From assembly GCA_021827645.1 (NCBI GenBank), contig JAKAVA010000055.1, positions 23,185 through 87,184 on the forward strand: 64,000 bases of DNA, read 5' to 3'. Position numbers and translations under genes: made by a program. The notes under the pieces were generated by a model. That model was not told the origin of the DNA, did no database searches, and saw only the letters and a program-made list of their open reading frames with translations. The first letter of the stretch is position 1. Each line of letters starts with the position of its first letter. Below are positions 39,825 to 47,783 of the stretch, piece by piece. Source of the stretch: Planctomycetota bacterium (GTDB lineage: Bacteria > Planctomycetota > Phycisphaerae > WQYP01).

Positions 39825-41702
39825 TCACTCCCGAATTTTTGCCCGGTAATAAAACCGGAATGGAGGGGCGCAGTCACCGTTGAGATAAAAATCAGTCCAC
39901 TTTCCGTTCTGCCTGATGTTATCCGCCCATTTGAAGTTGATATCCGCAGGCATGGAACCTTTGATACCCAATACGGATCGTGGAATCGCCATTTGCATTT
40001 GATTGCCCTTGACACGGATACGAGCCTTTCCTGCGGATGTCCACAGGTATTTGCCGTCGATATTTTTCTCAATGGTTGACGCACGATCGTTGAGAACCTG
40101 CCGGTCAACCACATAGTTAAAACCCATCCATTGACTGCTGCCGGAGTGAGGAATGTGTAAAAACAGAAGCATCCAGGATTTATCCCGCCAGGATGTCAGG
40201 GGTTTGTGGGTTTTCACCCAGAGATAGATATTGGATGAATCGTATGTAAATTTGCTTGCCACGATGTCATTGCGACCAGTATTGTTGATATAGTGTGCAT
40301 TCCCCCAGCCGGGTGAATTGCGGTGTACCGCCAGGCCCACATTATTGATAAACAGAGGGCCGATTCTATTCCATTGAGAAAATGGGCCGCGGATATGAAT
40401 CACCGCAGGATGGACGCAAGGCAGGCGATGGACGCCCTTATAGCGACGTATATTGGCGACCATCTGATAATAATAGTTATCGCCGAACCCCCCATAAAGA
40501 CCCCCTTTATCCTCCTTCATAGGTTCGATATCCCGGCTGAATTCAGGGCTATATTCATCTACAAAAACGGGTTGGCCCTTGGAGACCCAGCGGCCTGCAA
40601 AATAGTTTTTACTCGATGCACGCCTGCAACCGCAGGTCCACTCATTCCAGCCTGTAATAAAAATGAAGGCGGGATCAACACGGAGAGCGTGCTGCCACTG
40701 TTCCGCGAAACAGATACCGCGTCCGGGATGCTGCCGACTTGGAGTGGGTTCAATACCGTTGGACGAACTTCGCCCAGTGCTTCCGGTGGCCCAGCCAGCG
40801 GCGGCCACCGGCATTTCTTCTGGAGTATGCGGGTTGATATGCCAACCGAAGAGCCAGTTGAATTTGTGCGCAGTCGCAGCTTTCCGGGGCGTGTTATTCC
40901 AACTCCACCTATTCTTCCCCCCGGTATGTTCCCAGCAATATCGCAGGGTAAACAAATGCCGGATGGCGGCGGGTAATTTATGAATATTGCCGTAAATGAG
41001 CATCAGCGGCTTGCCATCCCAATAAAACCACAGTTTTTTGGCCAATCCGGTCTTATAAATATTTTGGTAGTCTGCGGTCCATGCGCCGTTGCCCCCATGA
41101 AAGATGAAATGACCTGCACTGCGTACCGCGCCCCTGCCTGCGAAACATACAAAATCCGGTACGGTATTGCCCAACGCCTTCATATGTAGCCATGTCTTAA
41201 ATAGCTTTTGATCTACCCTGAAAAAAGTCACTCCATAGGTGTTATCTAATATGATCGAATTAATACCCGCATCGCCGAGCATAACGGCGTGCTCACGCAA
41301 TACAAATGGATCCGAATCGATGTAGAAACCGAATAATGGCTCGCCCCACCAATGAGGGGAATAGAGCGGTCCCAGGACCGCGTTGGGGGTCTTTTCAAGG
41401 ATAGCCGCATTGTTCCATATGCGTTGACCTGGCCGATTACTATGCGTGAAATAGAATATTCCCACCGTTCTATCAGGTTTGGGTGGTCCTACCTGCCGGT
41501 AATCCGGTAGCACACGTCCGAGCCCATCGACGGCTCCCCATGTATCGGGTCCGGCGACGGGAATGACGGTGTGGCGATGACCAGAATGCCATGGAGCGGC
41601 ACATGACGCATCAGTTAGACATAGCCCCGTAAAAAGGATGATAATCCCAGTCACGACCGGTCTTGAAAGTCGATGAAGGGCTGAACCAAAGTTAAATCTC
41701 AT
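39825..41702 (-). CDS. Secreted hypothetical protein, probable carbohydrate-active enzyme (unassigned family)
   Basis: Signal peptide. Contains an ITGWNEW...DEYSPEFSRDIEP segment reminiscent of the catalytic NEW motif of GH99/GH71-like TIM-barrel hydrolases. No confident family call. It lies in the rhamnosidase/sulfatase cluster. Confidence 0.3.
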   Translation of the reverse strand: MRFNFGSALHRLSRPVVTGIIILFTGLCLTDASCAAPWHSGHRHTVIPVAGPDTWGAVDGLGRVLPDYRQVGPPKPDRTVGIFYFTHSNRPGQRIWNNAAILEKTPNAVLGPLYSPHWWGEPLFGFYIDSDPFVLREHAVMLGDAGINSIILDNTYGVTFFRVDQKLFKTWLHMKALGNTVPDFVCFAGRGAVRSAGHFIFHGGNGAWTADYQNIYKTGLAKKLWFYWDGKPLMLIYGNIHKLPAAIRHLFTLRYCWEHTGGKNRWSWNNTPRKAATAHKFNWLFGWHINPHTPEEMPVAAAGWATGSTGRSSSNGIEPTPSRQHPGRGICFAEQWQHALRVDPAFIFITGWNEWTCGCRRASSKNYFAGRWVSKGQPVFVDEYSPEFSRDIEPMKEDKGGLYGGFGDNYYYQMVANIRRYKGVHRLPCVHPAVIHIRGPFSQWNRIGPLFINNVGLAVHRNSPGWGNAHYINNTGRNDIVASKFTYDSSNIYLWVKTHKPLTSWRDKSWMLLFLHIPHSGSSQWMGFNYVVDRQVLNDRASTIEKNIDGKYLWTSAGKARIRVKGNQMQMAIPRSVLGIKGSMPADINFKWADNIRQNGKWTDFYLNGDCAPPFRFYYRAKIRE

Positions 41703-42129: not shown

Positions 42130-43080
42130 ATGGCCAGAAAACCCTACAGCAAGATGCGATCGCAGTTGTGGAAATTCATCGAGATTAACCGCCAGTTGCG
42201 AGAACAAAAACGCACCGGGCGCCCATGCACAAAAGAAACCTTGCTTAAAGGACTCCGTTACGATGTCAACGAGCGAACCCTTCGCCGCACGCTTGAATTA
42301 ATGCGCGACGAACTCGGTGCTCCGATCGTCTACGACCGATTGCTGCAAACGTACAAATTGCAACATGACGATTGGCGTATGCCGAATATTTCCCTGGATG
42401 AGGCTGAACTGCAGGTGTTGGCGACCGCCATCCAAGCCGTCAGACCGGTTTTGCCCAAACCAATGTCCGAGCGTCTCGATAAGTTGCTGGCGAAATTGCT
42501 GGATGCCTTACCGCTTAGCCGTTGCGACGCCGTCCGACGGGCTCAAGGGCAGATTGAATTCGTTCCGGCCCCGATTCTATCCAAAGGTATGGAGTGGTTG
42601 GAACCGCTTTACCTGGCGATTCTTGATCGATATTCGGTGGATATGGTCTACCATGTGCCGAGCCGGGATGAGAATACCCGTCGCCGCTTTGATCCCTACT
42701 ACCTGCGCAACGTCCAAAGCATCTGGTATGTCGTCGGTTATGACCATTTCACCAGACATTGGCCGATCTTCAAACTGGCGCGGATTCGAGAATTAACGGT
42801 TTCTGAAGACTTATATACCGTCAAACCCTTCAGCGCCGCGAAATATTTCAAAAACAGTTTGGGCATTATGGTCGGCGGCAAGCCGCAGCACGTGCGTATC
42901 CGATTGACCGGCTATGCGGCGAGCACCGCGGAGGAGTATGTGTGGCCGGATGGCTTCACGTGCCGGCGCAACGGCCCCGGTGAGGTGATTCTTTCCGGTC
43001 AGATTGTTCATATGGCAGAGTTGCTGCAATGGACAGTGGCGTTTCAGGGGGATGCGGAAATCCTGCCGGAAGAGAAATAA
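42130..43080 (+). CDS. WYL-domain transcriptional regulator (N-terminal wHTH, WYL, C-terminal WCX-like region), BrxR/CapW-like
   Basis: N-terminal HTH (SKMRSQLWKFIEINRQLREQKRTGRPCTKETLLKGLRYDVNERTLRRTLELMRDELGAPI), central WYL-type beta region (RRRFDPYYLRNVQSIWYVVGYDHFTRHWPIFKLARIRELTV), C-terminal extension. ~316 aa, the typical size. Preceded by a ~430-bp AT-rich intergenic region. Confidence 0.75.
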   Translation: MARKPYSKMRSQLWKFIEINRQLREQKRTGRPCTKETLLKGLRYDVNERTLRRTLELMRDELGAPIVYDRLLQTYKLQHDDWRMPNISLDEAELQVLATAIQAVRPVLPKPMSERLDKLLAKLLDALPLSRCDAVRRAQGQIEFVPAPILSKGMEWLEPLYLAILDRYSVDMVYHVPSRDENTRRRFDPYYLRNVQSIWYVVGYDHFTRHWPIFKLARIRELTVSEDLYTVKPFSAAKYFKNSLGIMVGGKPQHVRIRLTGYAASTAEEYVWPDGFTCRRNGPGEVILSGQIVHMAELLQWTVAFQGDAEILPEEK

Positions 43081-43270
43081 TCTACCATCGACCCTCCGTT
43101 GCCCCTTTGCCCATGTTTATGCAAAGGTCAAAGGTCGAAGAGCCGTGGCCGGCCAAACCCGTAGGACAACATCTGTCCGTGGCATGTGGTATGACATATG
43201 CGTTAACTATTTGGCGTAGCCGGAGGCTTTCCCTCCCGTAATTGGCCTGCATGCGGAAAGGAGCTTAATC

Positions 43271-45601
43271 ATGAATGACCAGACCCAATCCACGGTCGCC
43301 GCACATCAATTCCCCTCTGTCGTCATCTGCAGTGAAGACGCCGCACCCTCCATGAGCTTTACCCAAGTTCGCGAAAACCCTTACCTCTGCGTCAAAACGC
43401 TCAAGTTTTTAGAGACATTTCTGCAGTCGGAAAAAGGCATCTTGGAAGATAATGACTTTTTTCATTTTATAGTTCACATCCTCGGCAAGCACAACACCCT
43501 TGATATGGGACGGCAATATTGTTCATTTGATGGGCTGCGCAGCATCACCAAAAGCATGCTGGAGGAATCAAATGAAGACGTAGCATCTCATGTGCTCGCG
43601 GATCTCTGGAGCCATCCCCGCACTCATGCGGCCATTAAGAAGGCCCTCCTTGCCGCCCTGGCCGAACAGAGTGAACATTGGAACAGGATCGCGGCAGAAA
43701 CAAAGGATCAAGACGTCATACGACATCGCTTCGAAGAGTTGTCGCGTCTCCTCGGGCTTACGGATGTCGAATTGGATATGCTGCTCCTCGCCTATGTCCG
43801 CTACGCGGATATCTGGGACTGGTGCTCCCTTGGGCGCACGCGCCCCGTCCGCAGGGCGTTTCAGCGAATTTGCGTCATCGCACGAATTCTCAGCCTTCCG
43901 CAGGCGGTGGCCGCAAAATATCTCCTGGAAAACGCCAAGCTCCGTTCGCTCGGGTGTCTTGATTCCGACCTTGACTTCCGATCTGAATTGGAGCCTTTCC
44001 TGATCGGCCTCTCAGAGGATCCGCTGGCGTCGAAATATTTTGTCCGCTGCAACGAGCCAGCCCTGCCGTGGTCGATGCACGGCACCCTTGCCGATCAGCA
44101 CGGCGAATGGCTCAAACGGCTCATTTGCAACCGTGATCCGAATCGCGGATTGAATATTCTGCTTTACGGCGTCCCCGGTACCGGCAAAACATCCTTTGCT
44201 CTCTCGCTGGCTGCCGAACTTGGCTATGAAATGTATCGTATTCGCGGGGCGGAGGAATTTGACAGCGATCCGATCAACTTCTGGCCCCGCTTCGCCGCGC
44301 TGCGTATCTGCGATGGTCAGGCGAATCGTGACCGCAGCCTGATCCTGATTGATGAGGCCGATGATATGCTTGATAGCGCCGGGGTCCCGTTGGGGGAGGT
44401 TAGCGCAGGTGTGACTGACGGGCGAACCGACAAAAAAGAAACACTTAATATCATCTTGGATCAACTCAGGACGCCGTGTATCTGGATCACCAACAATCAA
44501 CCGCATCATCTGGCGTCCTCGTCGCGCCGCCGGTTTGATTACTCCATTGAATTTACGCCCCTCCCGCAGCAGAAACGTCAACAAGTGTGGAAAAATCTGC
44601 GTCTGCGGTATGGACTGGCGGAAGTCATCAATGACGAAATGGTTGAGAGCCTTGCGCGACGATTCTCCATCAGCGCCGGTGGAATCGATCTGGCACTTCG
44701 CAATTTCGGCCGATTGGCACACGATCCGGCAGTTGCGGCCACCGCCATGGAATCCCTTGAGCACTTACTTCGACCGCATTGCGAACTAATGGGTATTGAC
44801 CTCGATGGCGATGCACCAACATCGATAGAATATTACTCGCTTTCCGGCCTCAATATCCGTGGACCGATTGGGCCGCAGCGTCTCTTGCAGGCAGCACGAG
44901 AGTTCCATCTGCGGCACGAGCATCGGGGGCCAACTGATAGGCGTATTCCCGGTTGTGCGCATCTGGCGGTGCTTCTCTCCGGGCCGCCGGGAACAGGCAA
45001 AACCGAATTCGTTAAATTTCTCTCCCGCGACTTGGATTGTGCTGTCCGCACCATCATGCCCGGCGATCTGCTGAGCCGATATGTCGGCGGTACGGAGCAG
45101 AACATCCGGCGGGTATTTCGAGCCGCTGCGGCTGATAAAGCCATTCTCTTTCTCGATGAAGCCGATGGCCTGTTTCGATCCCGTTCCCTTTCAGACCGAA
45201 GCTGGGAAGTGACGCAGGTTAACGAATTGCTGTCTGCCATGGATCAATTTGCAGGCATACTGGTTTGTGCTACCAATTCAGTCCAAATGCTCGATGCCGC
45301 GACCATTCGCCGCTTCACCTTTAAGCTGGAATTTGATTATCTGGATGCGGCCGGAAAGAGGGAATTTTATCAGCGCTTGCTGGTGGAACTGTGCCAGGAG
45401 CCATTGGATGGCAATCAGCAGCGCCGCCTGAATCAGATTGCCGATCTGGCGCCCGGCGATTTTTACACCGTGCGACAGGCGATGTCCTATCTGGGCGAGG
45501 GTCACAACTTCACTCACGACGATCTGCTCGCTGCTTTGGAAGCAGAAAGTCGTGCCAAACGCTTCGGCAAATCGGGCAATTTCGGTTTCGGACGGGGGTG
45601 A
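43271..45601 (+). CDS. Tandem AAA+ ATPase with ~290-aa N-terminal domain of unknown function
   Basis: Two classical AAA modules. Module 1: Walker A GVPGTGKTS, Walker B LILIDEADDM, sensor ITNN, Arg finger SSRRRFDYSIEF. Module 2: Walker A GPPGTGKTE, Walker B ILFLDEADGLF, sensor ATNS, ATIRRFTFKLEF. The RRF-type second region of homology resembles Vps4/spastin-clade AAA. The N-terminal domain is not recognisable. Confidence 0.75.
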   Translation: MNDQTQSTVAAHQFPSVVICSEDAAPSMSFTQVRENPYLCVKTLKFLETFLQSEKGILEDNDFFHFIVHILGKHNTLDMGRQYCSFDGLRSITKSMLEESNEDVASHVLADLWSHPRTHAAIKKALLAALAEQSEHWNRIAAETKDQDVIRHRFEELSRLLGLTDVELDMLLLAYVRYADIWDWCSLGRTRPVRRAFQRICVIARILSLPQAVAAKYLLENAKLRSLGCLDSDLDFRSELEPFLIGLSEDPLASKYFVRCNEPALPWSMHGTLADQHGEWLKRLICNRDPNRGLNILLYGVPGTGKTSFALSLAAELGYEMYRIRGAEEFDSDPINFWPRFAALRICDGQANRDRSLILIDEADDMLDSAGVPLGEVSAGVTDGRTDKKETLNIILDQLRTPCIWITNNQPHHLASSSRRRFDYSIEFTPLPQQKRQQVWKNLRLRYGLAEVINDEMVESLARRFSISAGGIDLALRNFGRLAHDPAVAATAMESLEHLLRPHCELMGIDLDGDAPTSIEYYSLSGLNIRGPIGPQRLLQAAREFHLRHEHRGPTDRRIPGCAHLAVLLSGPPGTGKTEFVKFLSRDLDCAVRTIMPGDLLSRYVGGTEQNIRRVFRAAAADKAILFLDEADGLFRSRSLSDRSWEVTQVNELLSAMDQFAGILVCATNSVQMLDAATIRRFTFKLEFDYLDAAGKREFYQRLLVELCQEPLDGNQQRRLNQIADLAPGDFYTVRQAMSYLGEGHNFTHDDLLAALEAESRAKRFGKSGNFGFGRG

Positions 45602-46177
45602 ATGGTGAATTTTATAGCTATTGATTTTGAAACCGCCAACCGATCTGACGAAAGCATCTGTGCCGCAGGTATGGCGATATTTACCCATGGTAGGCTTTTG
45701 GACGTGCGGCATTGGCTGATCCGACCGCCAAGGGGTTTTGATCGGTTCCGTTCGGATTGGACGGAAAGCCTCCATGGCATCGGGCACGCCGATGTGCAGA
45801 ACTCACCCTATTTCCCGGGTATCGCTGAACTATTATTTCCTCAGCTGGCCTCGGCCGATGTGGTCATTGCGCATAACGCCGCTTTCGATCTGCGAAAACT
45901 TCTGGCTACAGCCCGATGTTTCAACTTGGTCGTTCCACAGTTTGATTGCTTGTGCACGCTGGCACTGGCTCGCCGGGTTTGGCCTGATTTAGAAGGTCAT
46001 TCTCTCGACGTGCTCTGCGCCCACATCGGCCATCGGGGCCATCATCATCATGCCGGTGCAGATGCCGAGGCCGCGGGGCGTTTACTACTGGCGATGATGG
46101 CCACTACCAACACCGCGACGCCGCGTGCCTTGGCCAAAAAGCTCGGAATCCAGCCGCGCCCCGTGCCGGGCCGGTAA
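45602..46177 (+). CDS. DEDDh 3'-5' exonuclease (DnaQ/RNase T-like)
   Basis: Exo I (IAIDFETAN), Exo II (VVIAHNAAFDLRKL), Exo III with a His-rich run (HRGHHHHAGADAEAAG). Start ATG overlaps the stop of the AAA+ gene (TGAATG), suggesting translational coupling. Confidence 0.75.
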   Translation: MVNFIAIDFETANRSDESICAAGMAIFTHGRLLDVRHWLIRPPRGFDRFRSDWTESLHGIGHADVQNSPYFPGIAELLFPQLASADVVIAHNAAFDLRKLLATARCFNLVVPQFDCLCTLALARRVWPDLEGHSLDVLCAHIGHRGHHHHAGADAEAAGRLLLAMMATTNTATPRALAKKLGIQPRPVPGR

Positions 46178-46658
46178 TCGGCTGGGCGTGCCCATTGCCC
46201 ATTTTCTGCATAAAGCCGCGACCGGCGGCCGAACCGCTTTGTTTTCTGGCGTGGCCCCACCATTTGCCGGCCACGCTGCGTGTTGGCTGGGCCACGGATG
46301 GTGAACGCGGCCTTCTGCGCGATCACACTTCCGTCATCTCCGGGCAGGTAAAACGCATAGGACAATATCTGTCCGCATCATCGGGTAACTTTATCCGTGT
46401 TGAGCGTCCGGGCCGGCCGGGCGGATGGCATTTTAATGGAAGGGGAAATCATGAAGCCGTTGCTTGAAACCACACCGGCGCTGCTGGGCATGTCCGTATC
46501 AGGGGCGGTGGCCTGCGCGGGCAGCCCCGCCGATTATTATCCTTACCACGCACGGGAATGAGATTATTATTGACGAGTGATAGCCGCCGGTACCGGCCAG
46601 GTACCACGGATGTTTTGGTTGTTTTGTGGTTCGAATTCGCTAATAAGGGGGTATTATC

Positions 46659-47783
46659 ATGGCCAACATGGATGATCGTTACTTTGACTACTACGGCAAG
46701 TTGGTCGAGGCGTTTGTCCGCGACGTTGAGTCGCTGCAGCATCCGGACGTCGACAAGATGCCTTATCCGCATCTGCCGCTATTCGGGGGTGGCTATGAAC
46801 AGTCCGCCCTCAAACTGGTGATAGTTGGACAGGATACGAAGGGATGGGGCGACCTGAAAAAGTACCTGGCGGACGCCAAGGGCGACCCCGGCGCCGCACT
46901 CCGGTCTGATCTGGAGGAGTTCCGCCGGCATGAGTTCACCAAATGGGGATCGCACCGCCACACCTTCTGGGGTTTCGCCATTATGGCGCTTGCGGCGATC
47001 CATGGCCAGCCCAATTGGGGGGTGATGAAAAATGGTGGCCTGAAGGAAGTCTTGGATAGCTTCGCGTGGGCCGAGGCCAACGCGGTCGAGCTTTTTAAGG
47101 GGGAATGGAAGGGTGTGCCGCGTGATTACTGGGAGAAGGTGCAGGCCGCCGGGAAACGTTTCGACGGTATCCACCATCTGGTCGAGGTGCTCAAACCCAA
47201 TGTGGTCATCGTTTTGTATTGGGGGCTCAAGAAAGAAGACTACTTCCATGGCTACGATCGCGAGGACGTGAGCCAGAACGGTCGATTTACGCACTTCAGG
47301 CTGCCGACAGCTAAACTCGACGTCCTGCATATGCCGCATCCAAGGAGCATGGGCCCTAGAGAAAAGGCGGATTTCTTCTGCAAGGCGGCCAAATCCCTTA
47401 TGGACGACCTTGGTTTCGCGAAGAACTTTCCGGAGTTCGTGAACGGTACCCAGGAGGCTGCCCAAACCGTCGAGTTTCTGACCAAAAACGCTCCGGAAAT
47501 CTCTGGTGAGTTTGACAAATACGCGCTGGTCGCTTGGATTGCCACGGAGCTTGCCAAGCGCCAGGCGTTTATGTCGGTGCCTACACTCGCAAGCATTATT
47601 AACGCGAAGGGGGGACGCACCAACGGCGGCGAACGCTTCTCCGGCGGCCGCGGCACCTACCGGCTCGTCAGTGGTTCCTACCAACGCTACGATAAACAGG
47701 GCAAGGGCAAAATTGCGGAATCCATAGCGGAGGCCTTTCGTAGGCCAAATTTCGATTACGCCTACCCCCGTGGAGCAAGCTGA
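46659..47783 (+). CDS. Hypothetical protein with motifs resembling the uracil-DNA glycosylase superfamily
   Basis: LKLVIVGQDTKGW resembles UDG motif A (GQDPY, water-activating Asp). NVVIVLYWGLKK ... LDVLHMPHPRS resembles the LLWG strand and HPSPLS motif B of family-1 UDG, with similar spacing. Weak, memory-based similarity. Own AT-rich upstream region. Confidence 0.3.
   Translation: MANMDDRYFDYYGKLVEAFVRDVESLQHPDVDKMPYPHLPLFGGGYEQSALKLVIVGQDTKGWGDLKKYLADAKGDPGAALRSDLEEFRRHEFTKWGSHRHTFWGFAIMALAAIHGQPNWGVMKNGGLKEVLDSFAWAEANAVELFKGEWKGVPRDYWEKVQAAGKRFDGIHHLVEVLKPNVVIVLYWGLKKEDYFHGYDREDVSQNGRFTHFRLPTAKLDVLHMPHPRSMGPREKADFFCKAAKSLMDDLGFAKNFPEFVNGTQEAAQTVEFLTKNAPEISGEFDKYALVAWIATELAKRQAFMSVPTLASIINAKGGRTNGGERFSGGRGTYRLVSGSYQRYDKQGKGKIAESIAEAFRRPNFDYAYPRGAS

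Follow-up and report, generated by a model that had tools for sequence, protein, structure and literature searches.

The gene described here appears, on balance, to encode a stand-alone, mobile DNA glycosylase of the UDG superfamily that would be active on modified phage bases in antiphage defense, as judged from its sequence and from a structure model. It lies in a stretch of 64,000 nucleotides from a bacterium of the Planctomycetota (hereafter the window, to which all positions refer), and catalysis, substrate and defense phenotype are what we infer from the fold, from how well the motifs are conserved and from the genomic surroundings. A role in defense is rather likely. The protein most likely represents a distinct, unannotated sequence family of UDG-superfamily defense glycosylases, a distinction that in the case of Brig3 is drawn from its description only.

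The gene and the predicted fold of its product

A previous reading of this DNA from sequence only had pointed to a 374-aa protein with UDG-superfamily-like motifs. The ORF at 46,659 to 47,783 on the plus strand is real, its translation gives 374 aa, and the Shine-Dalgarno sequence AAGGGGG is found 8 nt 5' of the ATG. All three peptides quoted at that time are present in the translation, namely LKLVIVGQDTKGW (residues 51-63), NVVIVLYWGLKKEDYF (residues 181-196) and LDVLHMPHPRS (residues 220-230). The spacing between the motifs amounts to 124 residues and not to the "about 130" given. The AF2 model of the 374-aa protein (pLDDT 92, pTM 0.91) leads to the following features of the gene.

46659..47783, plus strand: coding sequence of the two-domain UDG-like protein, 374 aa, stop codon included (ORF and translation)
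46659..47408, plus strand: N-terminal domain, residues 1-250, predicted divergent UDG-superfamily fold
46815..46847, plus strand: beta1 and motif A, LVIVGQDTKGW, residues 53-63 (model strand 53-57; conservation; UNG alignment)
47058..47090, plus strand: beta2 and proposed base-reading motif, SFAWAEANAVE, residues 134-144 (model strand 135-139)
47199..47225, plus strand: beta3, NVVIVLYWG, residues 181-189 (model strand 182-186; equivalent of the UNG VVFLLWG strand)
47325..47351, plus strand: beta4 and motif B, LHMPHPRSM, residues 223-231 (model strand 220-225)
47412..47753, plus strand: C-terminal domain, residues 252-365, predicted independent helical, winged-helix-like module

The N-terminal 250 residues very probably adopt a UDG-like fold, and the structure prediction bore out this part of the previous reading. 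In the model, they form the three-layer alpha/beta/alpha architecture with a four-stranded parallel sheet that is characteristic of the UDG superfamily. The strands follow in the order beta1 (53-57), beta2 (135-139), beta3 (182-186), a beta-hairpin insertion and beta4 (220-225), and lead into Q-D-T after beta1, A-N-A-V-E after beta2, Y-W-G after beta3 and P-H-P-R-S-M after beta4. In the comparison of the folds, ~150 residues are aligned. The first 23 Foldseek matches of the model were all family 4 UDGs or TDGs, these matches being weak (E 2.7e-3, TM ~0.48), and the matches below them were noise. Motif A is located directly after beta1 (Q58-D59-T60) and the His loop of motif B (P226-H227-P228) directly after the last core strand, both as in the UDG superfamily, the part of the motif A assignment taken from the UNG alignment being weak. 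The most conserved residues of the family are situated, according to the model, in the loops after beta1, beta2 and beta4, which are the loops that form the active site of UDGs, and the strand-loop topology suggests that the motif residues share one DNA-facing pocket. From the motif positions we propose D59 as the water-activating catalytic residue, H227 as the His that stabilizes the leaving group and M231 as the intercalating wedge.

Alignments with characterized UDGs are consistent with the structure; they are individually weak and do not constitute independent proof. Comparison by hhalign with E. coli UNG (query sequence identical to 1LQG) aligned beta3 and motif B, the latter to APHPSPLS, with an E value of 0.026. 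Under permissive settings the alignment was collinear over 188 columns (E 0.017) and all four motifs were mapped, with G57-Q58-D59 corresponding to G62-Q63-D64, position 139 to N123 (in a low-confidence region), VVIVLYWG to VVFLLWGS, H227 to H187 and M231 to L191; global hhalign against UNG was uninformative. A profile built from 105 divergent relatives (A2) gave a single match in an hmmsearch of the whole PDB, the family 4 UDG of S. tokodaii (4zbx, E 0.0025), which spans beta3 and motif B ("taHPrw" to "TYHPAA"). Beta3 aligns to "PKIIVTLGRH" of the S. tokodaii UDG and to "VVFLLWGS" of UNG. No PDB sequence was matched by phmmer with the protein itself or by a profile of 57 close homologs.

For the winged-helix-like domain at the C-terminus, a contribution to DNA binding or to docking is probable. 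Many relatives are ~255-270 aa long and consist of the N-domain only, others carry the N-domain with unrelated C-termini, and the C-domain occurs also in other proteins. A stand-alone C-domain protein of 87 aa is encoded on a Chryseobacterium plasmid beside a WYL gene and a PD-(D/E)XK nuclease. Only one plasmid match to the protein was found, and it is to the C-domain.

Conservation and distribution of the family

A search of 5.8 billion proteins led to 59 clusters of full-length homologs of ~370-390 aa, none of them named, with 40-55% identity to the protein and one at 97%; an exhaustive profile search extended the family to 608 representative clusters (at 50% identity). In the alignment of 57 homologs (40-55% identity), G57, D59, T60, H227 and P228 show no variation, and conservation is at least 90% at Q58, P226 and M231 (M231 in 56 of 57). 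The pattern extends to 105 divergent relatives with 19-43% identity, in which G57 is retained in 104, an acidic residue (D/E) at position 59 in 102, H227 in 103, P228 in 101, W137 in 100, N139 in 97 and E144 in 94. The UDG-like motifs are a family signature kept in close and divergent homologs, and not a chance resemblance in a single sequence. Position 139 divides the two-domain subfamily (n = 57) into 40 members with Asn ("WGN" subtype) and 17 with Glu ("WAE" subtype). Our protein carries Glu (E139) in place of the usual Asn, and no correlation was seen between the Asn/Glu subtype and genomic context.

It might be argued that the UDG fold serves in this family as an inactive DNA reader or sensor, which, on binding or flipping a base, modified or not, would recruit or license neighboring effectors in the way of the vaccinia D4 scaffold. 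We consider this unlikely, since the residues retained across the 105 divergent members, the acidic residue and the His-Pro pair, are those expected for catalysis, and since the partner systems described below are too varied for one specific protein-protein interface. An active glycosylase is the reading we follow.

Direct searches with the protein gave no match in Pfam, PADLOC, NCBIfam or PHROGs, and the gathering threshold of Pfam PF03167 was not reached. Pfam UDG was the commonest sub-threshold match among the relatives (7 of 105, best E 0.0035). A family of 608 clusters for which Pfam, NCBIfam, PHROGs and PADLOC hold no model is overlooked by current defense-finding pipelines. The gene is rare and patchy in its distribution, with only 19 loci among one genome per species for 185,579 species. 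The two-domain form occurs mainly in Verrucomicrobiota and Planctomycetota, and no relatives were found in phage records.

The neighboring operon and a shared operator in the window

The gene had been placed immediately downstream of a candidate defense operon. This does not hold strictly, as 481 bp separate the stop codon of the exonuclease gene from the gene studied here, and within this gap there are hairpins resembling terminators, a palindromic operator (46360-46374) and an ORF of 36 codons. The features upstream of the gene are the following.

42130..43080, plus strand: WYL/WCX-domain regulator of the BrxR/CapW type (Pfam WYL 1.9e-15 plus WCX; PADLOC WYL 1.5e-22)
43164..43178, no strand: second operator copy GGACAACATCTGTCC, between the WYL and AAA+ genes, 92 nt upstream of the AAA+ ATG
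43271-45601, plus strand: 776-aa double AAA+ ATPase (Pfam AAA 2.7e-41; PADLOC IetA-like 2.4e-37)
45602-46177, plus strand: 191-aa DEDDh exonuclease, abutting the AAA+ gene (RNase_T 4.9e-12; PADLOC DEDDh 2e-23)
46360..46374, no strand: palindromic operator GGACAATATCTGTCC, 284 nt upstream of the ATG of the gene
46451..46561, plus strand: 36-codon ORF with a Shine-Dalgarno sequence, 76 nt after the operator and upstream of the gene (sequence reading)

The gene forms its own transcription unit in the window. The 15-bp element GGACA-N5-TGTCC occurs in only two copies in the 64-kb window, for which 0.05 were expected and which none of 100 shuffles reached. One inverted repeat is thus shared by the regions preceding both units, as in a WYL regulon, and this suggests, from sequence, common control of the gene and the AAA+ operon by the WYL regulator. 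Both copies are conserved in the locus of the 97%-identical homolog (L030). In another Planctomycetota locus (L001), five copies were found, each preceding a transcription unit; one of them lies ahead of a UDG gene recognized by Pfam (26.1 bits, cut-off 24.3), which the homolog of our gene follows. This Pfam-UDG neighbor, tested as kin, is related neither to the family studied here nor to Brig1. From the operator onward, 61 nt show 77% identity between the window and L001, where a 178-aa gene and a TM2 gene are driven by the same promoter cassette. L012 has one operator copy 174 bp upstream of the homolog, and the element is present in none of the Verrucomicrobiota loci examined. When the 481-bp gap was compared with the upstream regions of other homologs, nothing was conserved except the operator cassette. 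An Rfam scan of the leader gave no match, and the 36-codon ORF is possibly a leader peptide or a relic.

WYL repressors of the BrxR type bind inverted repeats with a 5-bp spacer, two such boxes being present in one defense island (PMC9122601), and repressors of the CapW type sense single-stranded DNA (PMC11662680). By analogy, the WYL regulator of the window is presumed to be a putative operator-binding repressor. As the gene stands as its own unit behind a palindrome shared with the AAA+/exonuclease operon, it is probably WYL-repressed and induced together with that operon.

It had further been suggested that the protein may act with, or alongside, the AAA+/exonuclease module. In its strict form, this makes the glycosylase an obligate third component of a WYL/AAA+/DEDDh system, in which it would generate abasic sites that are processed by the exonuclease and the ATPase. 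The genes are adjacent in the window, in L030 and in L001/L011 (there with toxin-antitoxin and UDG genes interposed), a DEDDh homolog is located 447 bp upstream of the homolog in L017, and both units have the operator in common. A context survey of ~23 independent neighborhoods (lineages) argues against such a partnership and makes it improbable. Homologs of the AAA+ and WYL genes of the window were present in only 2 of them, being confined to the window (with L030) and one Planctomycetota MAG (L001-3/L011), and the DEDDh exonuclease in only 3, L017 included, which leaves 21 and 20 lineages, respectively, lacking them. The 481-bp gap, the separate operator and the terminator-like hairpins after the exonuclease gene point in the same direction, as do other genomes, in which the close neighbors of the gene, 6-14 bp away or overlapping it, belong to quite different systems. 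The AAA+/exonuclease operon is probably co-regulated with the gene rather than its obligate partner. On account of its patchy distribution and variable partners, the gene is most likely a portable, stand-alone, single-gene defense cassette and not a subunit of the AAA+/exonuclease system.

Base composition gave no clear island signal. Large minus-strand ORFs at 33-39 kb, considered as candidates for type I R-M genes, were identified as a rhamnosidase, RhaT and a sulfatase.

Genomic neighborhoods of the homologs

Co-occurrence of the homologs with defense genes, which the sequence-only reading had made a test of its proposal, was confirmed, since defense genes adjoin the homolog in at least 15 of the ~23 lineages, an enrichment; taken as a whole, that reading is partly supported. 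In 11 of the ~23 neighborhoods the gene is located inside or beside BREX (in the PglX-PglZ slot), DISARM-like or type I R-M operons, of which type 1 BREX accounts for four lineages, DISARM-like operons for two and type I R-M for five (L004, L007, L020, L021, L035). Their gene orders are as follows.

L013, BREX: BrxC, PglX (overlapping the gene), homolog, PglZ, BrxL (PADLOC BrxC 1414, PglX 1447, PglZ 926 bits)
L033, BREX: PglX, 10-bp gap, homolog, PglZ (930 bits), BrxL
L031/32, BREX: PglX, UvrD-like gene, homolog, GmrSD, unknown gene, PglZ, BrxL, pAgo
L006/16, BREX: PglX, 341-aa gene, homolog, further genes, PglZ, BrxL
L005 and L015, DISARM-like: DEAD-MZB giant helicase, DrmD/DpdE-like SNF2 helicase, homolog
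L004, type I R-M: homolog directly after hsdR, 14-bp gap
L020, type I R-M: homolog 6 bp after hsdS
L007, L021, L035, type I R-M: homolog beside type I genes

A DrmMI-like methylase lies directly downstream of the homolog in L005; the contig of L015 ends inside an unannotated 399-aa ORF, and this locus also contains an AbiEii toxin. The BREX locus of L031/32 carries a CBASS insert upstream. The BREX locus of L031 has another gene of 374 aa, which was tested as a possible paralog and is not one. Other defense neighbors include a TIR gene (L028, a distant Bacteroidota member), SNIPE and a PIN_12 giant protein, and further neighbors are toxin-antitoxin pairs and an Hsp70/UvrD/SbcCD-like cluster. 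Four lineages have no defense genes nearby. In L008/9, the homolog interrupts a hydrogenase operon between hoxY and hoxH.

These neighborhoods also bring to mind a base-excision effector that is functionally tied to immunity by N6-adenine methylation (type 1 BREX, DISARM-like, type I R-M), a reading to which we give little credence. In such an arrangement, the winged-helix-like C-domain would dock the enzyme to those machines or their DNA intermediates, and the class of base that is excised would depend on whether residue 139 is Asn or Glu. Even less probable is a restriction glycosylase coupled to N6-adenine methyltransferases, which would serve BREX, DISARM or type I systems as an effector by excising a base at unmethylated target sites. 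The 11 loci of N6-methyltransferase-based systems would fit, as would the frequent position of the gene immediately behind PglX or HsdS/HsdR, in the same orientation and with gaps of 6-14 bp or overlaps. However, no methyltransferase is found near the gene in the window, L001, L017, L024 and others, and the gene is missing from most BREX, DISARM and type I systems. To our knowledge, the substrates of UDG-fold enzymes are pyrimidines or deaminated purines and not adenine, which also counts against such a coupling. Base-excision restriction enzymes do exist in the R.PabI family (PMC10273834), but R.PabI has a different fold.

A housekeeping base-excision repair UDG of PVC-group bacteria, to which the UDG-like fold, the active-site motifs and a few loci devoid of defense genes might be ascribed, is hardly credible for a gene of such patchy occurrence whose location differs per genome, which is embedded in defense operons behind a defense-type WYL operator, and which shows no synteny with repair genes.

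Comparison with known UDGs and defense glycosylases

The protein shares with family 1 UNG (E. coli Ung, 1LQG) the G-Q-D after beta1, the WG-type beta3 and, after beta4, the His-Pro with a hydrophobic wedge four residues later, all in the same order. Membership in family 1 (GQDPYH, HPSPLS, sequence homology) was nevertheless rejected, as there is no sequence-level match and the Tyr gate of GQDPYH is missing. Neither does the protein belong to family 4, having a single, non-conserved Cys instead of the four Cys of the 4Fe-4S cluster. The family 4/5 UDGs (T. maritima 1L9G, S. tokodaii 4ZBX/4ZBY, T. thermophilus 2D3Y) have GEAPG as motif A, whereas our protein has GQDT and no cluster cysteines.

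The concept of a defense glycosylase is anticipated by Brig1-3, and Getz et al. described 11 UDG-like clusters in integrons. Brig1 (Hossain et al., 2024; PMC11078745) has the motif A GLNPG without Asp, no HP motif B, and the residues Y121 and E147. It is a single-domain protein of 261 aa, whereas the protein described here has an extra C-terminal domain, and its taxonomic center is in Actinobacteria rather than in Verrucomicrobiota and Planctomycetota. Comparison by hhalign gave a probability of 0.1% (E 0.41) over an irrelevant C-terminal stretch, and membership in Brig1 was rejected. Brig2 and Brig3 resemble our family in being UDG-superfamily defense glycosylases that are mobile and associated with defense islands, Brig2 acting on modified thymidines and Brig3 on 5hmC (10.1101/2025.10.29.685425; 10.64898/2026.02.25.707755). 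By its description, Brig3 (N50-P51-S52, D127, the inserting residue N225, single domain) differs from our protein in its motifs and their order. The family studied here is characterized by its added domain, its Asp-type motif A and its niche inside methylation-based systems.

This niche is shared with the Type IV (modification-dependent) restriction enzymes of the BrxU/GmrSD type that are found in BREX loci, and in L031 the homolog adjoins a GmrSD gene between PglX and PglZ. By analogy, the same logic is likely to apply to both, that is, a modification-dependent back-up inside a methylation-based system; the BrxU/GmrSD type are phosphodiesterases, whereas our protein has a glycosylase fold. 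A survey of BREX diversity from 2026 lists only nucleases as "auxiliary and backup effectors" and mentions neither glycosylase nor UDG nor uracil (PMC12839542).

Proposed mechanism

A monofunctional glycosylase would flip a non-canonical pyrimidine out of the invading DNA and excise it, with Asp59 activating the water, His227 stabilizing the leaving base, residue 139 reading the Watson-Crick edge and Met231 filling the gap. The resulting abasic sites would block phage replication or be cut by host AP endonucleases, a route to defense that was demonstrated for Brig1 and Brig3 (PMC11078745; 10.64898/2026.02.25.707755; 10.1101/2025.10.29.685425). As a single-gene cassette, the gene would land in defense loci, above all between PglX and PglZ of type 1 BREX and in operons of the DISARM-like and type I R-M kinds, where it would serve as a back-up against phages that escape methylation-based systems through their base modifications. 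In the window, the adjacent WYL regulator would repress the gene, and its induction would occur together with that of the AAA+/exonuclease operon.

The residue at position 139 may bear on the substrate. Human UNG gains cytosine excision by the substitution N204D. In Brig1, E147 represents a Glu where UDGs usually have Asn, and it is needed for action on a cytosine derivative (PMC11078745). Because of these two precedents, we speculate that the Glu-139 subtype might act on a cytosine-derived modified base of the 5hmC type, and the Asn subtype on bases derived from U or T.

Significance

The recognition of defense DNA glycosylases dates only from 2024-2026 (Brig1-3 and the Dag families), and with every new family a different phage base modification has come to light as a target. 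The protein described here brings together a family 1-like motif of the Asp type, a scaffold like that of families 4/5 and an additional DNA-binding-like domain, and the natural Asn/Glu switch at its putative base-reading position could be used to study or to engineer specificity. The PglX-PglZ slot of BREX is repeatedly occupied by this family. If the activity is confirmed, a glycosylase class would join the back-up effectors of methylation-based immunity, and a handle would be gained on the DNA modifications of the barely studied phages of Verrucomicrobiota and Planctomycetota. Should the enzyme indeed be wired to N6-adenine-methylation immunity, BREX-type systems, whose means of stopping phages are still debated, would gain a glycosylase arm in PVC-group bacteria.

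Genes preceding the UDG-like gene

Three genes located upstream of the gene for the 374-aa UDG-like protein showed, as a trio, no match to any named defence system.

Window 39825-41702, minus strand: 625-aa ORF
Window 42130-46177: genes for a WYL/WCX regulator, a 776-aa protein and a 191-aa DEDDh exonuclease, in this order
Window 46451-46561, plus strand: 36-codon ORF MKPLLETTPALLGMSVSGAVACAGSPADYYPYHARE with a Shine-Dalgarno sequence

The 776-aa protein contains two AAA+ modules, the C-terminal one being IetA-like at a score far under the NCBIfam IteA cut-off, and its gene abuts the exonuclease gene (gap of 0). The same trio was found in a Planctomycetota MAG, with 59-64% identity for the WYL and AAA+ proteins and 53% for the exonuclease. 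The 625-aa ORF, which gave no match in Pfam, PADLOC, NCBIfam or PHROGs, adjoins the WYL gene also in a locus 97% identical to the window (L030) and may be part of the island. The 36-codon ORF lies 76 nt after the palindromic operator, the presumed site of the WYL regulator, and 97 nt before the ATG of the UDG-like gene; it may encode a leader peptide, be a relic or have no meaning at all. In L001, a Planctomycetota MAG locus, a promoter cassette homologous to the one preceding this ORF has two genes under its control, one of 178 aa and one with a TM2 domain.

Neighbours of the homologues in other genomes

The following genes were found close to homologues or relatives of the UDG-like gene.

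L001:6763-7488 (= L011:8763-9488, same MAG): 241-aa Pfam UDG protein (26.1 bits, threshold 24.3)
L028:8916-10678, Runella chromosome: distant family member and TIR gene
L004:9731-11737 and L005:13914-15920: unannotated 668-aa protein, a few kb downstream of the homologue in both

The gene for the 241-aa protein is preceded by an operator copy and directly followed by the homologue. By sequence, this protein is a relative neither of the family nor of the antiphage glycosylase Brig1, so that L001 carries two divergent UDG-like genes in tandem.

The gene order in L017:1976-7262 is RtcB RNA ligase, 376-aa and 171-aa unknown genes, DEDDh exonuclease (52% identical to that of the window), 98-aa ORF and homologue; here the exonuclease stands beside the homologue and the AAA+ ATPase is absent.

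The Runella member (30% identity), in which the N-domain is joined to a different C-terminus, overlaps the 3' end of a CAP12/Pycsar-type TIR-domain gene by 4 bp, and the two may form a two-gene system. The 668-aa protein adjoins SNF2 helicase or methylase genes, gave weak LmuB/SMC-like matches in L005 (PADLOC) and may be a recurring partner of the DISARM-like system.

A further island, L031:1-17125, is densely layered. Its type 1 BREX locus includes a CBASS pair (CD-NTase and Cap15), and the interval between PglX and PglZ is occupied by a UvrD-like helicase, the homologue of the UDG-like gene, GmrSD and a 374-aa gene of unknown type; a Piwi/pAgo gene comes next.

Probable mobility of the gene, and its C-terminal domain as a separate protein

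The C-terminal domain also occurs alone.

L034 (NZ_CP094531.1 25069-25332), Chryseobacterium oryzae plasmid: 87-aa stand-alone C-terminal domain, WP_243577856.1

Genes for a WYL-domain protein, a PD-(D/E)XK nuclease, and zincin-like and JAB-domain proteins lie in its vicinity. The homologue at L008/L009:8001-9155 is 50% identical and has no defence genes around it; it interrupts a NiFe-hydrogenase operon, in the orientation of the operon genes, and separates the gene for the hoxY-like small subunit from hoxH. This insertion suggests that the UDG-like gene moves as an autonomous cassette.
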